This document shows, in pieces, positions 21,959 through 33,881 of a DNA stretch of 34,888 nt. Position numbers and translations under genes: made by a program. Source of the stretch: a virus (Duplodnaviria > Caudoviricetes); the IMG/VR virus record IMGVR_UViG_3300025621_000030, positions 1 to 34,888 of that record. The stretch is one strand, 5' to 3'. A model generated the notes under the pieces. The model was given only the letters and a program-made list of their open reading frames with translations, was not told where the DNA came from and ran no database searches. Position 1 is the first letter of the stretch. Every line of letters begins with the position of its first letter.

Positions 21959-22120
21959 ATGAGAATAGATCTAAACGAAATTAAAAAATATGACTACAGC
22001 GACACTTCAACAGCAAGAGAACTTATATACAAGCTAACAGAGGAGCTTGAAAAAGCATATAAATTACAAAATGATTTAATCGAAGCAATAACTAAAAAGG
22101 GGGTAAATAATGAAATATAA
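21959..22120 (+). CDS. Hypothetical protein, 53 aa (MRIDLNEIKKYDYSD...)
   Basis: Hand-translated; abuts the previous stop. Confidence 0.65.
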   Translation: MRIDLNEIKKYDYSDTSTARELIYKLTEELEKAYKLQNDLIEAITKKGVNNEI

Positions 22121-22250
22121 AATAATAATTAATAACGGAACTCTTAAAGGCTTTTTAGCCTTTAGGGGTTCATGTCTTGCAACTATGCAAGATAAATTTA
22201 AACGCCTGGAACTTCAAGGGCATAAATTAAAACTAATAAGGGGTAAATAA
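22110..22250 (+). CDS. Hypothetical protein, 46 aa (MKYKIIINNGTLKGFLAF...)
   Basis: GGGGT RBS; TAATG coupling to the next gene. Confidence 0.65.
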   Translation: MKYKIIINNGTLKGFLAFRGSCLATMQDKFKRLELQGHKLKLIRGK

Positions 22251-22495
22251 TGGATATATACACAGAATATGTTATTTGGGGCGTAAAGATAGAAGACAGG
22301 GATAAACCCGAATATTTACAAGAGAGCTTGTTGCAGACACACCACCTAGGCGAAACTATCAGAAGTAAACCAATAGCGGAAAGGATAGCCCTATTATGTG
22401 AATCAAAGGGTTATACAAATGTAAGAATCCAATCTATACCCTTTTATGTGGGCTGTGAGTCTGATTTAGCCAAACAATTCATGGGGGTTAAATAA
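22250..22495 (+). CDS. Hypothetical protein, 81 aa
   Basis: ORF track; TAATG coupling at both ends. Confidence 0.75.
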   Translation: MDIYTEYVIWGVKIEDRDKPEYLQESLLQTHHLGETIRSKPIAERIALLCESKGYTNVRIQSIPFYVGCESDLAKQFMGVK

Positions 22496-22647
22496 TGAAA
22501 TATCAAATAAAAATATTACATGGCTCAATATATGAAATATTAGCCGATAACTTATTAGATTTACACAATCAGATTCAAAATCTCAAAAAGAAGCATTGTT
22601 TATATGATGATGAAATAACATCTATAGAGGTTCAATATGAGTCTTGA
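22495..22647 (+). CDS. Hypothetical protein, 50 aa (MKYQIKILHGSIYEILAD...)
   Basis: GGGGGT RBS, TAATG coupling, ends before the terminator. Confidence 0.65.
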   Translation: MKYQIKILHGSIYEILADNLLDLHNQIQNLKKKHCLYDDEITSIEVQYES

Positions 22648-22708: not shown

Positions 22709-22893
22709 ATGCCTTGAATATATAGGAGAGCCTTAGAGCCTTTCTAAGACGTTTTAATATTAAAGCCTTGTATTACTATCAATATATATTTATATTGCAA
22801 CAGACGGCTTGTCCGTGCCTTGTTTTTTTCTCTGTTGCTTCTTTTTGTTTCTGTTGCTTTGTTTTTTTTCTTTGGTGATTTTTTGAATCAAGA

Positions 22894-23063
22894 TATAAAT
22901 TTGCCTTGATTATAAATTTGCCTTGATTATAAATTTGCCTTGATTATAAATTTGCCTTGATTATAAATTTGCATCAAAACAGTATTTGCATCAAAACAGT
23001 ATTTGCATCAAAACAGTATTTGCCTTGATCTTAAATTTGCCTTAAAAATAAATTTGCATTTAG
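22894..23063 (+). repeat. Array A: 10 tandem 17-bp units with ATTTGC core
   Basis: 4x TATAAATTTGCCTTGAT, one hybrid, 2x ACAGTATTTGCATCAAA, one hybrid, 2 degenerate units. Confidence 0.95.
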
Positions 23064-23131: not shown

Positions 23132-23377
23132 ATGAAACCATTAAATAAAAACCAACAAAAAGAGTTATCTCAAATTATGGGGTGGCACGATTTTAAAATA
23201 GACCAACGATCAACTCATAGTGCATACATAACTATGGGAGATATAACAGTCTATGTAGACAATTCAACCAACGAGCAAATAGTAAATGTATGGCAAGATC
23301 AACCGCTAGGCTTAGAAGAGAAAACTATTCATAGCTCATGGACTAATACAGATACACTTATAAGGGAGCAAGAATAA
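23132..23377 (+). CDS. Hypothetical early protein, 81 aa (MKPLNKNQQKELSQ...)
   Basis: Start moved to the ATG with an AAGGAG RBS; the track's upstream extension runs through the repeat array and promoter. Confidence 0.75.
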   Translation: MKPLNKNQQKELSQIMGWHDFKIDQRSTHSAYITMGDITVYVDNSTNEQIVNVWQDQPLGLEEKTIHSSWTNTDTLIREQE

Positions 23378-23484
23378 TGATTGAAGAACTACTAGACAAA
23401 TACCATGAAGACGATTTTGATGATTTGTTAATTGAAATAATCAAACACATGCAAGAACAAAAAGAAACAAGGGAGCAAGACTAA
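23377..23484 (+). CDS. Small acidic protein, 35 aa (MIEELLDKYHEDDFDDLLIEII...)
   Basis: GGAG RBS, TAATG coupling at both ends. Confidence 0.7.
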   Translation: MIEELLDKYHEDDFDDLLIEIIKHMQEQKETREQD

Positions 23485-23627
23485 TGAACTTAGAAGAATA
23501 TGCAAGAAAAAGAGTTGAAGAAGAAGATGAGCTAAAAGAATTGGCTTATGAACTTTTAATTTATTACTACGAAGGCTGGAGTAAGGAAGAATTAGCAGAT
23601 TTAGGTATAACAAAGGAGCAAGACTAA
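23484..23627 (+). CDS. Small acidic protein, 47 aa (MNLEEYARKRVEEEDELKELAY...)
   Basis: GGAG RBS, TAATG coupling. Confidence 0.7.
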   Translation: MNLEEYARKRVEEEDELKELAYELLIYYYEGWSKEELADLGITKEQD

Positions 23628-23773
23628 TGACAATTAAAGAATATTATAAATTAAGAGAAGCTATGAGTAATTTAGATAATCTTATTGATGATTGTTCAAT
23701 AGAAGTTAAAGAAGCTATTGACGAAGTATGGGATTTAGTAGATGAAATAAAAACAGAGGAGCAAGACAAATGA
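23627..23773 (+). CDS. Small acidic protein, 48 aa (MTIKEYYKLREAMSNLDNLIDD...)
   Basis: GGAG RBS; TAATG and ATGA coupling. Confidence 0.7.
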   Translation: MTIKEYYKLREAMSNLDNLIDDCSIEVKEAIDEVWDLVDEIKTEEQDK

Positions 23774-24084
23774 GTAAAGAAAAAATATATGAAATTGGCT
23801 TTGATGATAAATGCATGGGAGATCATAAGGGAGAGTGGGACGCTTGGTTTCTAAGCGACTTGATTTGCCTTGTAGGTGGCAATGTCTCTTGTACTGCAAA
23901 AGATTATGTAGAAGTAGATACAGATGATTATAAAAAAAGAATTTGCGTCTACATCGATCTTATGAAGTTTGTTTGTTATGTAGGTGATAAGCATGAGTAT
24001 TCAGCAAAAGACCATTTAGCCTTTCAAGGATTCTGTACTAAATATAATCTTAAATATGAGGAGTGGTGTGATGAGTCTAACTAA
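23770..24084 (+). CDS. Hypothetical protein, 104 aa, Cys/Asp-rich
   Basis: ORF track; GAGGAG RBS. Confidence 0.75.
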   Translation: MSKEKIYEIGFDDKCMGDHKGEWDAWFLSDLICLVGGNVSCTAKDYVEVDTDDYKKRICVYIDLMKFVCYVGDKHEYSAKDHLAFQGFCTKYNLKYEEWCDESN

Positions 24085-24292
24085 AAAACAAATAATAGAA
24101 AAACTTAAAAGCATACAGTACGAAGTTGATAGCATCTTTAACGAGAGGTTAGATAGGTTTGATACTGAATTGTTGGAGTTTCGCAAAGACCCTGAACCTG
24201 ATTATGGTTATATATCGTTTTTAGGGCATGAGGTTTATGAGGCTCAAAGAGTTCAAAAAGTAATTTTAGAAATAATAGGAGAGGAGGACTAA
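24071..24292 (+). CDS. Hypothetical acidic protein, 73 aa
   Basis: GAGGAG RBS before ATG 24071. Confidence 0.7.
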   Translation: MSLTKKQIIEKLKSIQYEVDSIFNERLDRFDTELLEFRKDPEPDYGYISFLGHEVYEAQRVQKVILEIIGEED

Positions 24293-24303
24293 ATTGCGGT
24301 AAG

Positions 24304-24335
24304 GGTAAATTTGCCTTAATGGTAAATTTGCCTTT
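24304..24335 (+). repeat. Array B: 2 units GGTAAATTTGCCTT (17-bp period) at the convergent gene junction
   Basis: GGTAAATTTGCCTTAAT GGTAAATTTGCCTTT. Confidence 0.85.
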
Positions 24336-24993
24336 ATCTTTTTAAGTGTCTAGCGAATTGTCTGTTGATCTCTCTATGCAAGGTGCTTTTAATAACTTTT
24401 TCTCCAACCTTATAAAAATCAATAAACTTTCTATGCTTAATAAATGGAGTAAAGGCTACAAGCAATTTAAGACCTTCTCTACCCTTTTTACCTTGCCTTT
24501 CCCATATACCATAAGTTTTAGAACCTTCTCCTTTAGGTACGCCTTGGAAACGTGAACCCTTTCTTTGTGAATCTTTTGTTTTATCAACTCTACTCAATAA
24601 ACCACCTTTTGCAGATAGCTTCATTATGTTTCCATATTTGCCTTTCTTGTATTCTCCATCTTTAGTTGGTGAGGCGTATTTTTGCCTTCTTGCAGGTTCG
24701 TTTTCTCCTGTGTATATGTAATGCAAAAACTTAACCGCCCAATCTTTAACAATAACCCTTGTAGCTAATCTATTGCTTCTAGGTTTGGCAAAGTTAGATA
24801 TAACAACAGACTTAACTGTTTGTGGACGTGGGTTATCTAACTTATCTTTAAGATGTGACCTTTCAGCATTTACAACCCTCTCTCCTGTATAATTCATAGC
24901 TCTTGCCATAATCTTATTAAAATCTCTTTTGTTTAAGTCTTTGTCTAATTGTTTTCTTAAATCTTTGAGATTATCTTTTACTGTTATTCTCAT
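24334..24993 (-). CDS. Basic protein resembling lambda gpZ / tail completion family
   Basis: M.ITVK.NL...ARAMN.T...LDNPRPQT, GIWER, LKLLV.F, DFY motifs; very basic. Confidence 0.55.
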   Translation of the reverse strand: MRITVKDNLKDLRKQLDKDLNKRDFNKIMARAMNYTGERVVNAERSHLKDKLDNPRPQTVKSVVISNFAKPRSNRLATRVIVKDWAVKFLHYIYTGENEPARRQKYASPTKDGEYKKGKYGNIMKLSAKGGLLSRVDKTKDSQRKGSRFQGVPKGEGSKTYGIWERQGKKGREGLKLLVAFTPFIKHRKFIDFYKVGEKVIKSTLHREINRQFARHLKR

Positions 24994-26262: not shown

Positions 26263-26289
26263 ATATATCCTCCGTGCTTATACATTTAA

Positions 26290-26385
26290 GTGTGCATGTG
26301 TGTAGTCCTACGGACTACTACACACACACACACTCAAATAATGTATTCATACACACACACACACTCGCACACACACTCACACACT
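26290..26385. repeat. CA/TG microsatellite tracts with central 7-bp hairpin (candidate origin / priming site)
   Basis: GTAGTCC-TAC-GGACTAC at 26302-26318 and four CACAC(A)..CTC tracts directly after the primase-helicase stop. Confidence 0.75.
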
Positions 26386-28383
26386 CTATCCATTAGATAA
26401 CTCATAATCATCATATATTCTAAAGTCTACTAGCCTGTAACCCATCTTTCTTACAGTGTTTTTATCTCTTTTGGCATGTATAACAACTCCAACCTTTTCT
26501 AATCTTTGGAACGATCTGTTTATAGAATCACGATTAATTTCCTTACCACTAGTGTTATAAACAGCATGGTGGCCAAAATCATCTGCTGTAAACCATTCTT
26601 CTTCAGGTTTTGGCTTATCTTTTGCTAAAAAATACATTAAAGAAGCAATCTTTTTGTCTTCTGCTTCTTTAACAGCATCTTGAAAATCCTCATCAGAACC
26701 ATCATCTTCAGTCTCAATTAGTAATCCCGAAGTAACATTTAGACCCTCACCAATAACAGTCTCTTCGTGGAAAATAAAATTCTTATCAGTCATTCCCATT
26801 CCATCTTTATTCTTGGTTTGTTTCATCTTGACAAACATTTCTTTTTTATCGCCAACTGTCTTATCTTTCCTTTCAATCAAAAACTCACCATCTATAGATG
26901 CATCAAGAACAGAACTACCCCTAGCTCTTCCTGTATTACCTCTACCAGTATGATGAACAAGCAAAACAGTACAATCAAAGTCTTGAACCAACTGATCTGC
27001 GGCTTTAATAAACTTATTGACCTCTTGAGCAGAATTTTCATCACCACTAAAGTTTCTTTGAAACGTATCAAATATAATTAAACCCACTCCTCCAATCTCG
27101 TCTTTAAGCAAATTTATCTCGTCTTCTAACTTTTGATACTCTTCAGGCTCATTAATTCTATTACCTCTGTTTGATAAAAATAAAGGCACTTCTTCTAATC
27201 CCTTGTCATTACCAGTCTTATCTTGTTTTTTAATATACTGGCTTAGTGCTGCTAATCTGCGTTTTACCCCAGCAACTCCCTCTCCAGCCAAGTAGACTAC
27301 AGGTGCTTTTTTTGTAGCATAACCATAAAAAGATGTTCCTCTTGCTATAGCACAAGCCATTGCAATTGCAATAAACGATTTGCCTGTTTTTGGTGCTCCA
27401 AAAACTGTTATTAATTTATTACGTTCAAAAACATCAGTAATTAGCCAATCAGGATTTGTTACTTCTGCTATATATTTATCAGCCCTTTTTAATCTGAACG
27501 CACCACTTGGTAACTTTTCTTTTTGTTTATAGACAAAGCCAATGAAATCTTCTGCTGACTTAAAAGTTCCTCTTTCATATGCATCGTATAGATCATCTTT
27601 CTCTTTAAACTTTTTAGGTGGTTGTATGATTCTTATTGACCTACAGCCATTTTTCCTTAAATATTCTAATAGATTAGCAGCACATTCTTTACCTGCTTTA
27701 TCATTATCAGGAAATATCCAAATCTCTTTACCAAATATAGGTGTCCAGTCTGCTTTTTCCCAACTATTAACTCCGCCATGCCAAGTACAAGAACTTAATT
27801 CTTTTCCTACTATTGCCTCACAGCCTCTTAGAGCCTTTTCACCTTCATTTATTACGACAGGCTTGTCATCACCCTTATTATTAAAATAAATGGGTAATTT
27901 GCCCTCAGGTCGCTTCAAAGACCATGTGCCATCAATACCCAGGGTAAAGGGAGCATACTTCTGTTTAATTGCATGACCTTCAGGAAACCTAAGAACCATA
28001 AAATTATCAGCATACTTTAGCTTAACAATTGCCTGTCTATACAAGTCAACCATCTGCTCCCTAGAGAATGATCTAGCATTACTTTTAGGCTTAGCGACAG
28101 GGGAATCACTAAAGCCAGTTAGTAAGGAGTCATTAGACTGTAATGCTAGATCATGACCAAACTGTTTTAAAACTGTATTTACATCTTGATTTAGATGTTT
28201 AATTAAATCTATTACTCCCCCACCGACTCCTGCTTCATGGTCATAGAATGTACCATCAGATAGGTTGAGACACATACTACCCTTGCGACCCCATCTATAT
28301 TCATTAGATGAGGTGCTAGTAGGTTCTCCTAGTAGTTGCTTTGCAACATCAGGAGCTATTCTTTGCCAATCAATATGCTCCAT
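26386..28383 (-). CDS. Primase-helicase (Toprim + RepA-like AAA_25)
   Basis: Toprim INEGEKA, WHGG, IFPDND; Walker A GAPKTGKS; YLAGEG; Walker B IIFDT; LVHHTG, ARGSS. Confidence 0.92.
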   Translation of the reverse strand: MEHIDWQRIAPDVAKQLLGEPTSTSSNEYRWGRKGSMCLNLSDGTFYDHEAGVGGGVIDLIKHLNQDVNTVLKQFGHDLALQSNDSLLTGFSDSPVAKPKSNARSFSREQMVDLYRQAIVKLKYADNFMVLRFPEGHAIKQKYAPFTLGIDGTWSLKRPEGKLPIYFNNKGDDKPVVINEGEKALRGCEAIVGKELSSCTWHGGVNSWEKADWTPIFGKEIWIFPDNDKAGKECAANLLEYLRKNGCRSIRIIQPPKKFKEKDDLYDAYERGTFKSAEDFIGFVYKQKEKLPSGAFRLKRADKYIAEVTNPDWLITDVFERNKLITVFGAPKTGKSFIAIAMACAIARGTSFYGYATKKAPVVYLAGEGVAGVKRRLAALSQYIKKQDKTGNDKGLEEVPLFLSNRGNRINEPEEYQKLEDEINLLKDEIGGVGLIIFDTFQRNFSGDENSAQEVNKFIKAADQLVQDFDCTVLLVHHTGRGNTGRARGSSVLDASIDGEFLIERKDKTVGDKKEMFVKMKQTKNKDGMGMTDKNFIFHEETVIGEGLNVTSGLLIETEDDGSDEDFQDAVKEAEDKKIASLMYFLAKDKPKPEEEWFTADDFGHHAVYNTSGKEINRDSINRSFQRLEKVGVVIHAKRDKNTVRKMGYRLVDFRIYDDYELSNG

Positions 28384-28998
28384 TTAAAAAGGAATATCGT
28401 CATCTGATAATTCATTCTTATCGACCATTTCTTGGACTTTTTCTGCAAGACCATCATTAGGACTCTTGAAAGTATCTTCTACTTCTTCATCTTCTTTGCC
28501 ATAAAATGAAGGTATAACAAAATTGTCAAACCTTGGTGCAAACTTAGAGAACTCAAAAGTTAGCTCTGATGACCTTCCTATACCAACCTGTATCTCTTTT
28601 GAGCCTTTATACTCAACAACAGGCAATGAATCACTACTGGCATCCATTTGATTCCAAAAGCTACTTAATATCTTATTAAATGCACTAGATTCAGCAAAAG
28701 TAAATCTACTCCATATTAATGCGTGTTCATGTCCATGTGGCATAACACAACAACTAAATGCTCTTTTCCAATCATCACCAGGCTTTGTACTAGCCTTGCC
28801 AAAGTTATCATCCCAAACATACTGATACTCACCAGCATATCTGCCCCAACCACTTTTAAATGTTGCAGGGTCTAACTGCAAGTATTTAAAATCAATTGGT
28901 GTTTTGCCATTAACAAAAAATTGTTGATCGGCAGTTTTAAAAGCAAGATAAACTTGCTGTCCTTCAGTGGAATTACTCATTCCTCCTAATATATCCAT
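28384..28998 (-). CDS. Putative single-stranded DNA-binding protein
   Basis: Acidic C-terminus ending DDDIPF; directly upstream of the primase-helicase. Confidence 0.65.
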   Translation of the reverse strand: MDILGGMSNSTEGQQVYLAFKTADQQFFVNGKTPIDFKYLQLDPATFKSGWGRYAGEYQYVWDDNFGKASTKPGDDWKRAFSCCVMPHGHEHALIWSRFTFAESSAFNKILSSFWNQMDASSDSLPVVEYKGSKEIQVGIGRSSELTFEFSKFAPRFDNFVIPSFYGKEDEEVEDTFKSPNDGLAEKVQEMVDKNELSDDDIPF

Positions 28999-29013
28999 AA
29001 TACTCTCCTATGG

Positions 29014-29223
29014 TTAATGTATTGTTCTATCAATACTGTTTAAGTAATCAGCTTCAAGTTGGGTATAACACCTTTCCTTGAAACTATAATAATCCTCATC
29101 ATTTGTAATGCCAAAGACATCACATGCAATGCTGATTCTTTCGTAGGCACGCCTACAAAACTCTTCAAAGTCTTCCTGTAGCAAATAACTATTTAAATCC
29201 ATTCGCTTTTTGTAAGACTTCAT
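29014..29223 (-). CDS. Hypothetical acidic protein (start may be 29202)
   Basis: ORF track. Confidence 0.65.
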   Translation of the reverse strand: MKSYKKRMDLNSYLLQEDFEEFCRRAYERISIACDVFGITNDEDYYSFKERCYTQLEADYLNSIDRTIH

Positions 29224-29611
29224 CTAAAATTTCACATAATTCTGATAATGGGCAATTATAGGTGCAATTCCAATTTGCCTTGTCAACACTTGTTACCAGG
29301 AACAAGGGAATCACACACATAATTTGCTTTCTATCATATTTATAAATAAGTAATGGTATTAGGCTATCGCCAGCACTCTCTACTGCTTGTTGCCACCATT
29401 CATTTTTATAAGTTGTTTTCTTAGCACTCTCCTTATATCTTTTACACTCAATCGCGAACTTATCAAAATATATATCAGCCATGCCTTTAGTTTGGTATTG
29501 ATCTAGGTTTCTCTTGACTCTAGTTTCTATACCCCTTGATTCAAGAGCAGTGTTCAGTTTATTAACAATAACCCTTTCAAATGCTGCTCCTTTGTTTCTA
29601 CTGTTTACCAT
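29189..29611 (-). CDS. Holliday junction resolvase-like PD-(D/E)XK nuclease
   Basis: NSRNKGAAFER, ADI, IECKRY, WWQQA, PLLIYK motifs. Confidence 0.8.
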   Translation of the reverse strand: MVNSRNKGAAFERVIVNKLNTALESRGIETRVKRNLDQYQTKGMADIYFDKFAIECKRYKESAKKTTYKNEWWQQAVESAGDSLIPLLIYKYDRKQIMCVIPLFLVTSVDKANWNCTYNCPLSELCEILDEVLQKANGFK

Positions 29612-29718
29612 TAATCTAATTTATTAAGTATGTAGATAGCAGCCACCACGCTGACTATTGTTACGATTGCTAACAACCCAACAAAGCCACCAATTAAATA
29701 TAGAATCCAGTCAAGCAT
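29611..29718 (-). CDS. Small single-TM membrane protein, 35 aa
   Basis: MLDWILYLIGGFVGLLAIVTIVSVVAAIYILNKLD; TAATG coupling. Confidence 0.6.
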   Translation of the reverse strand: MLDWILYLIGGFVGLLAIVTIVSVVAAIYILNKLD

Positions 29719-29875
29719 CAAAATCTGTCCTTACAACCCTTCCACTTTGGTATTTTATTTCTCTGTAATGTGTTCCTGCACCTTTCTGAAAATAGTAATA
29801 GGCAATTTGCTTGTCTAGTTTTTCATTCTTTAACTCTTCTCTTCTTTTAGCTACTGCTTTGCTATTTTGACCCAT
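29711..29875 (-). CDS. Hypothetical protein, 54 aa (MGQNSKAVAKRREELK...)
   Basis: GGAG RBS; overlaps both neighbours. Confidence 0.65.
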   Translation of the reverse strand: MGQNSKAVAKRREELKNEKLDKQIAYYYFQKGAGTHYREIKYQSGRVVRTDFDA

Positions 29876-30026
29876 TCTTTTTCTCCGCTTTATATGAAAC
29901 CATACCTAGCTTTAAAACCATCTGCGAAGCAGACTCAATAGTCATGTTGTTTTGTATTGCAAATATCTTGATTTCTTTATGCAAGTCCTCCGATATCCAT
30001 AGTGCTTTTTTTATCTTCTCATCCAT
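29862..30026 (-). CDS. Small ribbon-helix-helix-like regulator, 54 aa
   Basis: MDEKIKKALWISEDLHKEIKIFAIQNNMTIESASQMVLKLG; Arc/CopG-like pattern; GGAGAG RBS. Confidence 0.55.
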   Translation of the reverse strand: MDEKIKKALWISEDLHKEIKIFAIQNNMTIESASQMVLKLGMVSYKAEKKNGSK

Positions 30027-30114
30027 TCTAACTCTCCTTTTTTATATTAATATTAATTTAAGATTTTTACCACTTCTTTTGTGTTTATATGTGTTTGATG
30101 ACCTATAATCTTGT

Positions 30115-30173
30115 TAAGGGCAATTGATAAACTCTCCATAAATCTAAATACTCTCATTATCTATTTGCCCTTA
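30115..30173 (+). ncRNA. Candidate antisense hairpin sRNA
   Basis: TATAAT at 30104-30109; stem TAAGGGCAA..GATAA / TTATC..TTGCCCTTA; 26-nt loop carrying two anti-SD motifs. Confidence 0.4.
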
Positions 30174-30174
30174 C

Positions 30175-31005
30175 TCACAAAACCAACTCAACAACATTAG
30201 GACTATTGTAAATACTTAAAGGTTTACCCTTCTGATATTCTTTATAGTCATTCAAATACCTTTCCATAATCAACCAACCAAAATCCATTTGCTCATCAGT
30301 AATTTTAAATACTTTAGATGCATAAGGATAAGTCTTTTCCTGAGCAACAAATACAAACTCCTGAACATCATATCCAGCCTTCTGCATACCTCTTCTATAC
30401 CAAGCTGCTTGCATATCATAGCCATACTTCTTCACTGACCTAGCAAACATATAAGGTTCACATGATTGGGTAGTCTTATAATCTATGACCACAATACTGT
30501 TCTCAGTATCACGACTAATAAGAGGGTCACATATAGCATCAGGTCTACACTTACAAAGCACATCATCTTCATACCAGTAAAAACTTGCTTCAGCTACTTT
30601 ACCTTTAGCATTAAGATAAGCATTACCCTCATAAACCATATTGTCTCTCATGCCCTTTATAGTCTCTAAGTCAGCTTCCTTAATAACAGTCATGCCCTTC
30701 TCTTCACATTCTATCTTCTGCTCCTTGTATGCCTTTGTATAAGGTGAGCCTTCTAAGACTGTTATCTCTTTATTAAATGCATCTATGCCTTCAACTAACA
30801 TTGAATGAGCAGCAGTTCCAAAGGTCATAGCTGGTGTTGTCTCTTGCTTATGTTCTAAAGCATGAAGCTGAGACTCACCAAACCTTCTAATAAAACTACT
30901 ACTGATACCAACATTGGCATGATAGTCCTCATTGGGTATGTCTTTATATATCAACGCATCCCAACGTTTTTCTGATTCATAGTTCTTTAGTTCTTCTATC
31001 ATCAT
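30175..31005 (-). CDS. RecE/ExoVIII-like PD-(D/E)XK exonuclease (DUF3799-like)
   Basis: NEDYHA..ISSS, FGTAAH, KCRPD, IDYKTT, YGYDMQAAWY, FVFVAQEK motifs. Confidence 0.9.
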   Translation of the reverse strand: MMIEELKNYESEKRWDALIYKDIPNEDYHANVGISSSFIRRFGESQLHALEHKQETTPAMTFGTAAHSMLVEGIDAFNKEITVLEGSPYTKAYKEQKIECEEKGMTVIKEADLETIKGMRDNMVYEGNAYLNAKGKVAEASFYWYEDDVLCKCRPDAICDPLISRDTENSIVVIDYKTTQSCEPYMFARSVKKYGYDMQAAWYRRGMQKAGYDVQEFVFVAQEKTYPYASKVFKITDEQMDFGWLIMERYLNDYKEYQKGKPLSIYNSPNVVELVL

Positions 31006-31583
31006 CTCTGCTCACCCCACTGATTTGCCATAGCATCTGCTATGCCAGTATAAAATTTACTTCTTTCTTTTCCTTTACCACCACCAATCCACCAAATTCT
31101 ATGCTTTTCTTTGTCAGGCAGTGCATCTGTTTCTTTTTTTACATTATTTGTTTCTTTTAATTTAGGTAAGTTCTTCAACCACAAACAAGTTCTTTTATAT
31201 TCCATGTGACCAAACTGAAATGGATTTATCATTTGGTCAGATTTTCTTATGTATGAAGAGATTACACTTACAGGATTTTCAATGCATATTTTATCAATAG
31301 GTGCATCCATAAGTTTTTTCACAAACTCTATAGCTTCATCTCTTAAATACATTGGTTTTCTTCCTTCAGTAAACCACCTTGCACCACTAACTGATAGGTG
31401 TGTGCATGGTGGATGTGCAATCATTAAATCCCACCCATCATTAATAATATCTAATACATCACCTTGATAATGTTTACCTTCTGACTCAGTTGGTAAGATA
31501 TCGCAACTGGTAGCATCATGTCCTTTTTTAGTGAAAGCATCTCTCACTATTCCACTATATTCGCAAGCAACTAAAACTTTCAT
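31002..31583 (-). CDS. Short phage DNA cytosine methyltransferase-like protein
   Basis: VLVACEYSG, DLMIAHPPCT, IENPV, GIADAMANQWG motifs. Confidence 0.75.
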   Translation of the reverse strand: MKVLVACEYSGIVRDAFTKKGHDATSCDILPTESEGKHYQGDVLDIINDGWDLMIAHPPCTHLSVSGARWFTEGRKPMYLRDEAIEFVKKLMDAPIDKICIENPVSVISSYIRKSDQMINPFQFGHMEYKRTCLWLKNLPKLKETNNVKKETDALPDKEKHRIWWIGGGKGKERSKFYTGIADAMANQWGEQR

Positions 31584-32767: not shown

Positions 32768-33046
32768 TTATCTAACTTCCTTTTTATGTAAGTCTAATTC
32801 TGTTTGTAAGATTAAAACTTCCTTTTCTAATTCTATCACCTGTTCTTCTAGGACTCTAATATCAGGGAATATATATTTGTTTTGATTTGCTCTTAGGTTT
32901 TGTATCTCTCTGTCATTAAAGTCTATCTTTTCACTAATATTTGCATAACCCCAAACAGCTAAAGCTATAGCACCTATTATTTGTAATAAATAACTAAGAG
33001 AGATATTTAAAGTTGACTTATCATCAACCTTAGCTAGCTCACTCAT
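32768..33046 (-). CDS. Membrane-anchored coiled-coil protein (possible i-spanin-like)
   Basis: One N-terminal TM followed by coiled coil, inside the lysis cluster. Confidence 0.45.
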   Translation of the reverse strand: MSELAKVDDKSTLNISLSYLLQIIGAIALAVWGYANISEKIDFNDREIQNLRANQNKYIFPDIRVLEEQVIELEKEVLILQTELDLHKKEVR

Positions 33047-33420: not shown

Positions 33421-33621
33421 TTAAATTAAATAATCTTTGAGAAGAATCAATAACATTGATATAACTATTGTTGTAAGACCGCCTTTAATCCAGTTATTTA
33501 AACCATTAATATCATCATCTAGTTTTTCAAAGTGTTTAAATGCTGTAGTCCACCTTTCTGCACATTGTGTCTCATGTACTTGTAAGGATGCATGAACTTC
33601 TTGGGCGGTCTTTCTTGGCAT
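33421..33621 (-). CDS. XhlA/hemolysin-like small membrane protein
   Basis: HE..CAERW coiled coil plus C-terminal TM. Confidence 0.55.
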   Translation of the reverse strand: MPRKTAQEVHASLQVHETQCAERWTTAFKHFEKLDDDINGLNNWIKGGLTTIVISMLLILLKDYLI

Positions 33622-33881
33622 TATTCTTCCTCAACAACCTCAGCTACATCTTCAGCATTGATAGCTCTATCAAATGATTCAATTACTAAGTTTTTATATT
33701 CATTAGTAATTACATAGTCATCATAGTGCTCTTGAAGTCTAGCTAATTTTTTACCAGCAACATTTAATTTAGCAGCTAAAGCCATCTGCTCTTCATTTAG
33801 GTCAGCAGCTCTATACTCAACATCATTAAATGTAATGATTACTGGTTCTTGGTTTTCCATCTTATTTTCTTCGTTACTCAT
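33621..33881 (-). CDS. Hypothetical protein (possible fibre-associated chaperone), 86 aa
   Basis: ITFNDVEY...DL.EEQ followed by coiled coil; GGAGAG RBS. Confidence 0.55.
   Translation of the reverse strand: MSNEENKMENQEPVIITFNDVEYRAADLNEEQMALAAKLNVAGKKLARLQEHYDDYVITNEYKNLVIESFDRAINAEDVAEVVEEE

Follow-up and report, generated by a model that had tools for sequence, protein, structure and literature searches.

A conserved hairpin in oceanic siphophages mirrors the translation starts of a regulator gene and a putative SSB gene, and is likely a small RNA restraining phage DNA replication

We describe a conserved hairpin in a siphophage genome whose loop mirrors the translation starts of a regulator gene and of a putative SSB gene, and tracks the latter amongst relatives; it therefore likely specifies a small RNA (sRNA) that restrains phage DNA replication. 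The window analyzed here, a whole virus record of 34,888 bases, features a siphophage gene set (terminase, portal, capsid, tail, and lysis genes) and a minus-strand block that runs in the order exonuclease VIII, the hairpin, a gene for a 54-aa ribbon-helix-helix (RHH)-like protein (rhh), a RusA-like nuclease, putative SSB (ssb), and primase-helicase. Four lines of evidence support a plus-strand sRNA gene with an open loop predicted to pair with the SSB start: the geometry of the promoter, covariation within the stem, asymmetry between the strands, and covariation of loop and target. On this comparative basis we regard the hairpin as a real and new RNA family, and the comparison supports one of its predicted targets unusually well.

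The predicted sRNA promoter features a -10 box, TATAAT, at 30104-30109 on the plus strand, exactly where a preliminary description of this locus had placed it. The predicted RNA is 57 nt long (30116-30172, plus strand; putative ends; 53 unique variants) and comprises an outer stem (30116-30123/30165-30172) and an inner stem (30126-30130/30157-30161) that encloses a 26-nt open loop; the region 30090-30200 folds at -16.7 kcal/mol (z -2.65). The hairpin had been drawn from 30115 to 30173, beginning 5 nt past the box. The hairpin itself holds, but its conserved stem begins with A30116, at a distance of 6 nt from the box, and the 30115:30173 pair is not conserved; likewise, the loop motif reported from 30130 is present, but A30130 is the last base of the stem. 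On the same plus strand, seed A (AAACUCUCCAU, 30129-30139) is the complement of (AU)GGAGAGU at rhh and of those ssb start sites that fall in the AUGGAGA class, and is followed by a variable, G-free linker (30140-30146), which in some clades prolongs the match into the ssb spacer and start codon. Beyond the linker, seed B (AAUACUCUC, 30147-30155) is complementary to GAGAGUAUU of ssb. The two loop/RBS identities on which the original proposal was built are exact and exclusive to these sites, with AACTCTCC found only at 30030 and 30130, and AATACTCTC only at 28999 and 30147, across both strands of the 34.9-kb window; the SSB and RHH-like genes indeed share an upstream GGAGAGT and start with ATG GAT. 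The matches were also correctly described as short. When the loop is base-shuffled, 355/5000 versions find matches of at least 9 and at least 8 nt in two start regions out of 40, so the match in a single genome lies within chance; it is conservation and covariation that go beyond it.

The spacing of box and stem was compared across 76 unique flank+core types, a set with 30 different spacers, into which types entered through a filter or model that included the box. Box and stem lie 6 nt apart in 58 of these types, 8 nt in 11, and 5 nt in 7, so that transcription would begin at the first stem A (+1); this coincidence of the stem's 5' end with the predicted +1 suggests a primary transcript. The -35 element, already noted as weak, is poor in the window's clade, and a consensus scan makes no promoter call here. 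The U tract after the hairpin in the window is short and not strong. On the minus strand, the divergent rhh-operon promoter has a predicted -10 box, TAATAT (30044-30049), 6 nt before GGAGAG. This box is found 6-7 nt before the GGAG of rhh, on the strand opposite to the sRNA, in 86/87 unique intergenic types, and the rhh mRNA probably starts at its own SD. Judged from these box positions, the predicted promoters of the sRNA and the rhh operon stand back to back. RNA data comprised assembled contigs only, from four runs over 28400-31400, and from three RNA runs and one DNA run over 29900-30400; an RNA contig of one relative spans the promoter and half of the hairpin, which in assembled form is uninformative on the sRNA.

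To catalogue the hairpin amongst relatives, 80 loci were retained from 186 exonuclease relatives, making 81 with the window. The hairpin is present in 73/73 rows that hold the RHH-like gene (72 relatives and the window), about 90 nt upstream of rhh; the remaining 8/81 rows end before rhh, and the hairpin is still visible in two of them. These 73 rows were picked by protein homology, and in all of them the -10 hexamer is TATAAT or, mostly in the relatives, TATACT at the same fixed offset, while the 6-nt spacer varies. Pattern scans gave 205 matches (68 unique), with 12 dropped as GC-rich or promoter-less chance matches. A pattern scan of genome contigs for a host gave chance matches. Scans seeded with two distant SSBs, together with an RNA-model search, yielded 35 matches at E<0.001 among 46 sources, where the model recovered relatives by sequence only; all 35 are antisense to ssb, and 32 were inspected. 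The combined scans comprise 241 rows, overlapping between scans, and 53 unique RNA cores. Inserted genes, often methylases, are found at either flank of the hairpin and differ by clade, which suggests that hairpin and box form an independent unit. Both flanks (30173-30177 in the window) are insertion hot spots for methylase and other genes, e.g. in L003, L006, L016, L661, and L665. The exonuclease VIII-like gene (DUF3799; 30175-31005, minus strand), which is convergent with the sRNA, is not a fixed partner of the hairpin; many relatives have intervening genes, and L115 has a different nuclease gene.

The stem itself covaries. Stem cells are paired in 88% of cases, compared with 37-59% in slid controls, and double-sided changes number 15 vs 4.0+/-1.6 in shuffles, in rows that share descent. 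The covariation check proposed for the stem thus finds compensatory changes above shuffles across 53 variants. The outer stem swaps A-U/G-C and C-G/U-A, and one inner position features five pair types (fixed-register counts). Strand and loop counts, to which shared descent applies equally, favor the plus strand: G-U pairs number 29 on the plus vs 9 on the minus strand (53 unique variants), and the unpaired probability of the loop is 0.95 vs 0.66, with the plus strand more open in 53/53 cores. Only 3 of 885 loop bases are G (31 loop types, sharing descent as above), whereas G makes up 15% of the adjacent spacer and 8% of the DNA between the promoters. These asymmetries bear on the opposite reading, in which the minus strand does the work: the hairpin would end or stabilize the upstream transcript, or the loop would be the start of a leader peptide (SD + ATG GAG AGT), and any plus-strand RNA would act only in cis on read-through mRNA. 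The hairpin does always follow the last upstream gene, ATG or TTG precedes GAGAGT in 84/85 types, and the minus strand often folds to a lower energy when unconstrained. However, the small loop ORF ranges from 8 to 42 codons with neither frame nor length kept, AAG replaces its start in one clade, and the U tract is poorer on the minus strand (221 vs 328 T of 560). Moreover, a minus-strand function conflicts with the G-U pairs and loop openness, and leaves both the plus-strand -10 box and the covariation with a distant site (1.1 kb) unexplained. We consider it very unlikely.

Taking the plus-strand sRNA as the functional molecule, its loop was ranked against 50 translation starts of the window. 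The rhh start (SD, spacer, and AUG; 30018-30037, minus strand) ranks first, with a duplex of -18.7 kcal/mol, and the putative SSB start (28994-29007, minus strand) ranks second, at -16.0 kcal/mol, followed by a next-best loop duplex of -11.4 kcal/mol; a ranking of all phage RBSs, as had been suggested, therefore returns the two proposed targets. Whole-molecule co-folding places rhh and ssb at ranks 2 and 3 in the window, and when stem opening is allowed, a gene at 32768-33046 scores -7.7, slightly better than rhh (-7.4) and ssb (-6.7). Amongst relatives, ssb ranks third or better in 14/17 records, and rhh fifth or better in 11/11 where the ORF filter called it. The start of RusA was rejected as a third target: it forms a good duplex in some clades and reaches p 0.02 at the pair level, but the p of 0.32 at the loop level led us not to accept it. 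A late 86-aa gene (33621-33881) ranks seventh or better in 17/17 records, without covariation, and its start reads GGAGAGT in 12/16 records. As GGAGAG is a component of an ordinary SD, this gene is a possible third target or simply has an ordinary SD.

The SSB start is distinguished by covariation with the loop, which was assessed by permutation and Fisher tests that take no account of shared descent. Loop/ssb pairs from the same genome bind better than shuffled pairs, with 0/5000 shuffles reaching the observed value (pair level). At the level of 17 loop types, ssb gives p 0.006 by energy and 0.0001 by longest match, and the 11 other genes examined, with rhh among them, all stay at p 0.06 or above. 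Without the two best clades of this first set, the ssb signal is p 0.32 by energy and 0.005 by longest match. For ten held-out loop types, recovered only once the hypothesis had been settled, ssb reaches p 0.002 by energy and 0.053 by longest match, and across 29 loop types 0/20000 shuffles reach the observed loop/ssb energy; for ssb, the loop and its start site thus co-vary, as the original proposal would have it. In an SSB tree of 51 types, start sites switch back and forth repeatedly between two classes, one fitting seed B and the other fitting seed A plus flank. The seed-A flank occurs in 22/29 pairs without a seed-B match (vs 7/29), and AT precedes GGAGA[A/C/T] in 14/16 ssb sites vs 2/70 starts of other genes. 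Clade-specific loop changes are also mirrored at the ssb start, e.g. over 14 nt in L014, by AGAAGGAGA in L685, where it stands both in the loop and at the ssb start site, and by TAAGGAGAGT in L688. The sites in L710, L664, and L680 are weak, with matches of 5-6 nt only.

These mirrored changes help to weigh two further explanations. The GAGAGT repeats might be protein sites, bound by the RHH protein on DNA or by a translational repressor on mRNA, with the loop serving as a decoy or operator array. The same hexamer does occur twice in the loop and again at the rhh and ssb starts, beside an RHH-like gene, but the repeat period of 16-22 nt offers no helical phasing, and both the clade-specific 10-14-nt loop/ssb identity and the G-U-tolerant changes fit base pairing, so we give protein sites hardly any weight. 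We find it just as improbable that the RNA is a general anti-SD that acts mainly on host mRNAs, or on all GGAGAG-led phage genes, with incidental matches to ssb and rhh. Its seeds are nearly invariant across distant clades and GGAGAGT also leads the late gene described above in 12/16 records; against this, of 12 genes ssb alone covaries with the loop, and GGAGAGT starts are concentrated on three genes (38/44).

The other predicted target, rhh (29862-30026, minus strand), leads the replication operon. Its 54-aa product is RHH-like by weak Pfam and fold matches: Pfam Omega_Repress is matched at E 0.038, below the cut-off, and a structural model with pLDDT 80 returns mostly RHH proteins in the top Foldseek rows, none at E<=0.001. 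GGAGAGT is kept in 41/42 unique rhh start sites, the lone deviant being pairable through G-U, and unlike in rhh the sequence after GGAG is free to vary in other genes. Loop and rhh do not covary (p 0.43; held-out 0.16), because the loop and the rhh site both hardly change. The proposal that a plus-strand RNA pairs with both RBSs is thus supported by loop covariation for the SSB site, whereas the rhh site fits and forms the best duplex, without covariation. In a distant clade (L676 and L677), the rhh start mirrors an altered loop over about 19 nt, with a duplex of -21.8 kcal/mol; this is a single case of apparent loop/rhh covariation. A palindrome, TAATAAAG-N6-CTTTATTA, lies between the promoters in L008, L012, and most relatives, where it overlaps both predicted -35 regions, and is a candidate operator. 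The window's clade has a different sequence in its place, though the RHH beta-strand residues are invariant.

The putative SSB (28384-28998, minus strand) is so named for its acidic DDIPF tail and its gene position before primase-helicase, like the annotated SSB of CRP roseophages. It has no PHROG match and no meaningful Pfam match; its model has pLDDT 58, fold searches gave nothing clear, and an Atlas search led to unnamed viral clusters. A profile of this protein matched 0/300 sampled genomes of one bacterial class, in a search run without a positive control, and INPHARED phages matched neither the SSB nor the hairpin element. The start of the primase-helicase gene (Toprim + AAA_25; 26386-28383, minus strand), which in the window lacks an SD, abuts the ssb stop. 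Of 182 rows, 171 have the two genes overlapping or directly adjoining at this junction, so shutting off ssb would also shut off primase-helicase.

We consider it probable that a short primary transcript pairs with the SD and AUG of ssb and rhh, blocks ribosomes there and, through coupling to primase-helicase, sets a threshold for replication. The sRNA would be made from its own promoter, directed away from the replication operon, and its open loop would pair in trans with the ssb and rhh translation starts inside the cell. Pairing across SD and AUG represses translation; here it would block ribosome loading on both genes, and repression of ssb would extend to primase-helicase by translational coupling. 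During infection, the sRNA might thus serve as a threshold or brake, such that replication proteins are made only once operon mRNA exceeds the RNA.

The preliminary description had proposed a replication or carrier-state switch in a phage without CI. Replication control is retained, given the nature of the predicted targets; the carrier state finds no direct support: the phage family is read as probably lytic, and no integrase, CI, or partition gene was found among 47 ORFs scanned in the window, which also include no antirepressor. A carrier-state account would make the RNA the immunity repressor of a pseudolysogenic or plasmid-like state, in a bistable switch with the divergent RHH gene, which would repress the RNA promoter; the RNA would also silence superinfecting relatives. 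In its fullest form, the RNA takes the place of CI and silences an RHH 'cro' and ssb-primase-helicase, RHH silences the RNA, and the toggle lets an integrase-less SAR86 phage wait unreplicated, immune to relatives, in a starving host. The RNA gene does sit where cI sits in lambda, the two predicted promoters are divergent, many relatives have the palindrome between them, and rhh is among the predicted targets of a phage in which no CI was found. Several features nevertheless make both forms unlikely: the lack of integrase and partition genes among the scanned ORFs, the probably lytic character of the family according to the available text (PMC12629253), the loss of the palindrome in the window's clade despite invariant RHH beta-strand residues, and two seeds that barely vary, where immunity systems would be expected to diversify. 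Moreover, the sole record classed as provirus (G006, L626-L628) carries eukaryote-like flanks of 60-70% GC around a phage of 35% GC, and is probably a chimeric assembly.

CRP roseophages are the nearest cultured relatives of the phage, and the window matches three CRP phages at 49-52% in TerL, 42-55% in capsid, 49-50% in portal, and 28-33% in the helicase domain. Table S3 of the paper on the CRP-822-type family (PMC12629253) lists all six close relatives that were checked against it; on these relationships, we place the window phage with that family, as a CRP-822-type siphovirus. As described in the available text of that paper, two carriers of the element (L029 and L032) belong to subgroup V, with SAR86 as predicted host, and the group is abundant, without integrase, and probably lytic (PMC12629253); the same text nowhere mentions antisense, small RNA, sRNA, non-coding, repressor, or lysogen. 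The element is absent from three cultured subgroup III roseophages (CRP-811, -406, and -821), which feature no RNA-model match and no evident analogous hairpin.

The sRNA was likened from the outset to P1 C4 and P22 sar, as an analog rather than a homolog, and in keeping with this there is no Rfam match: nothing reaches the gathering score in the window, and nothing lies over the element at E<=10. The c4 RNA is matured from a precursor by RNase P, whereas sar of P22 is encoded opposite its ant target/ribosome-binding site, beside the RHH gene arc; RNAII of plasmid pMV158 is fully complementary to its target region. As far as the available text describes it, c4 of P1/P7 is a trans-acting RNA of 77 nt, whose loop-displayed sequences block a phage ribosome-binding region (PMC12197685). 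The loop of the window RNA is similarly complementary to phage ribosome-binding regions, with which it is predicted to pair. The target of c4 is the antirepressor (ant) mRNA of temperate phages with a protein repressor (PMC12197685), whereas here rhh and ssb/primase-helicase are the predicted targets; also unlike c4, both seeds occupy one large loop, and the Rfam C4 models are unmatched. The sar RNA, at about 68 nt, occludes a phage translation start (PMC12197685), but in contrast to sar, which functions in antirepressor control, the window RNA overlaps neither predicted target.

The threshold role proposed for the sRNA resembles that of the pMV158 system, where an antisense RNA and an RHH repressor jointly limit the plasmid initiator. 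The available account describes RNAII as a small antisense RNA that keeps a replication gene, co-transcribed behind the small repressor CopG, from being translated; it acts via its 5' tail, with its loop secondary (PMC4485353). The RHH fold, that of CopG, is found among the fold matches of the 54-aa protein that leads the replication operon, although these are weak and none is significant. Unlike RNAII, the sRNA of this tailed phage would pair over 8-9 nt, in trans, through an open loop, and would also cover the RHH gene; nor is its gene opposite a rep start, lying instead about 80 nt from the rhh start and 1.1 kb from the ssb start. The available supplements of Fremin 2023 (PMC10690425) gave 0 matches, and the hairpin may be among the 8495 unnamed candidates of that study. 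Our literature search found no description of the hairpin element, nor of SAR86, phage, small RNA, and antisense together.

To our knowledge, the trans-acting riboregulators described in phages belong to a small number of temperate enterobacterial phages and act on antirepressors. The present RNA family is fixed across an abundant and widespread group of uncultured oceanic phages with SAR86 as predicted host, and appears to be aimed at replication genes in the absence of integrase and CI. It thereby gives testable molecular access to the question of how replication might be paced or delayed in phages whose marine bacterial hosts grow slowly. Neither host nor phage needs to be cultured for tests of the 57-nt RNA and two 30-nt leaders, and matched as well as mismatched RNA/target pairs exist naturally.

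Other repeats and start-region motifs were observed in the window. Tandem, iteron-like 17-bp repeats of the TATAAATTTGCCTTGAT type lie at 22894-23057 and 24292-24351, and are a candidate origin or packaging signal. Amongst the records scanned, similar arrays occur in just two others (G014 and G016), which suggests that they are not tied to the RNA. Small plus-strand genes at 23347-23784 and 22091-22497 share common extended start regions, AAGGGAGCAAGACTAATG in four copies and GGGGTAAATAATG in three. A U/C-rich tract (22827-22849), which recurs in G014, is 83% complementary to one shared start region, and is possibly a second anti-RBS element or low-complexity sequence. Directly 3' of the primase-helicase gene, the region 26284-26401 features a 23-bp inverted repeat and CA-rich repeats.
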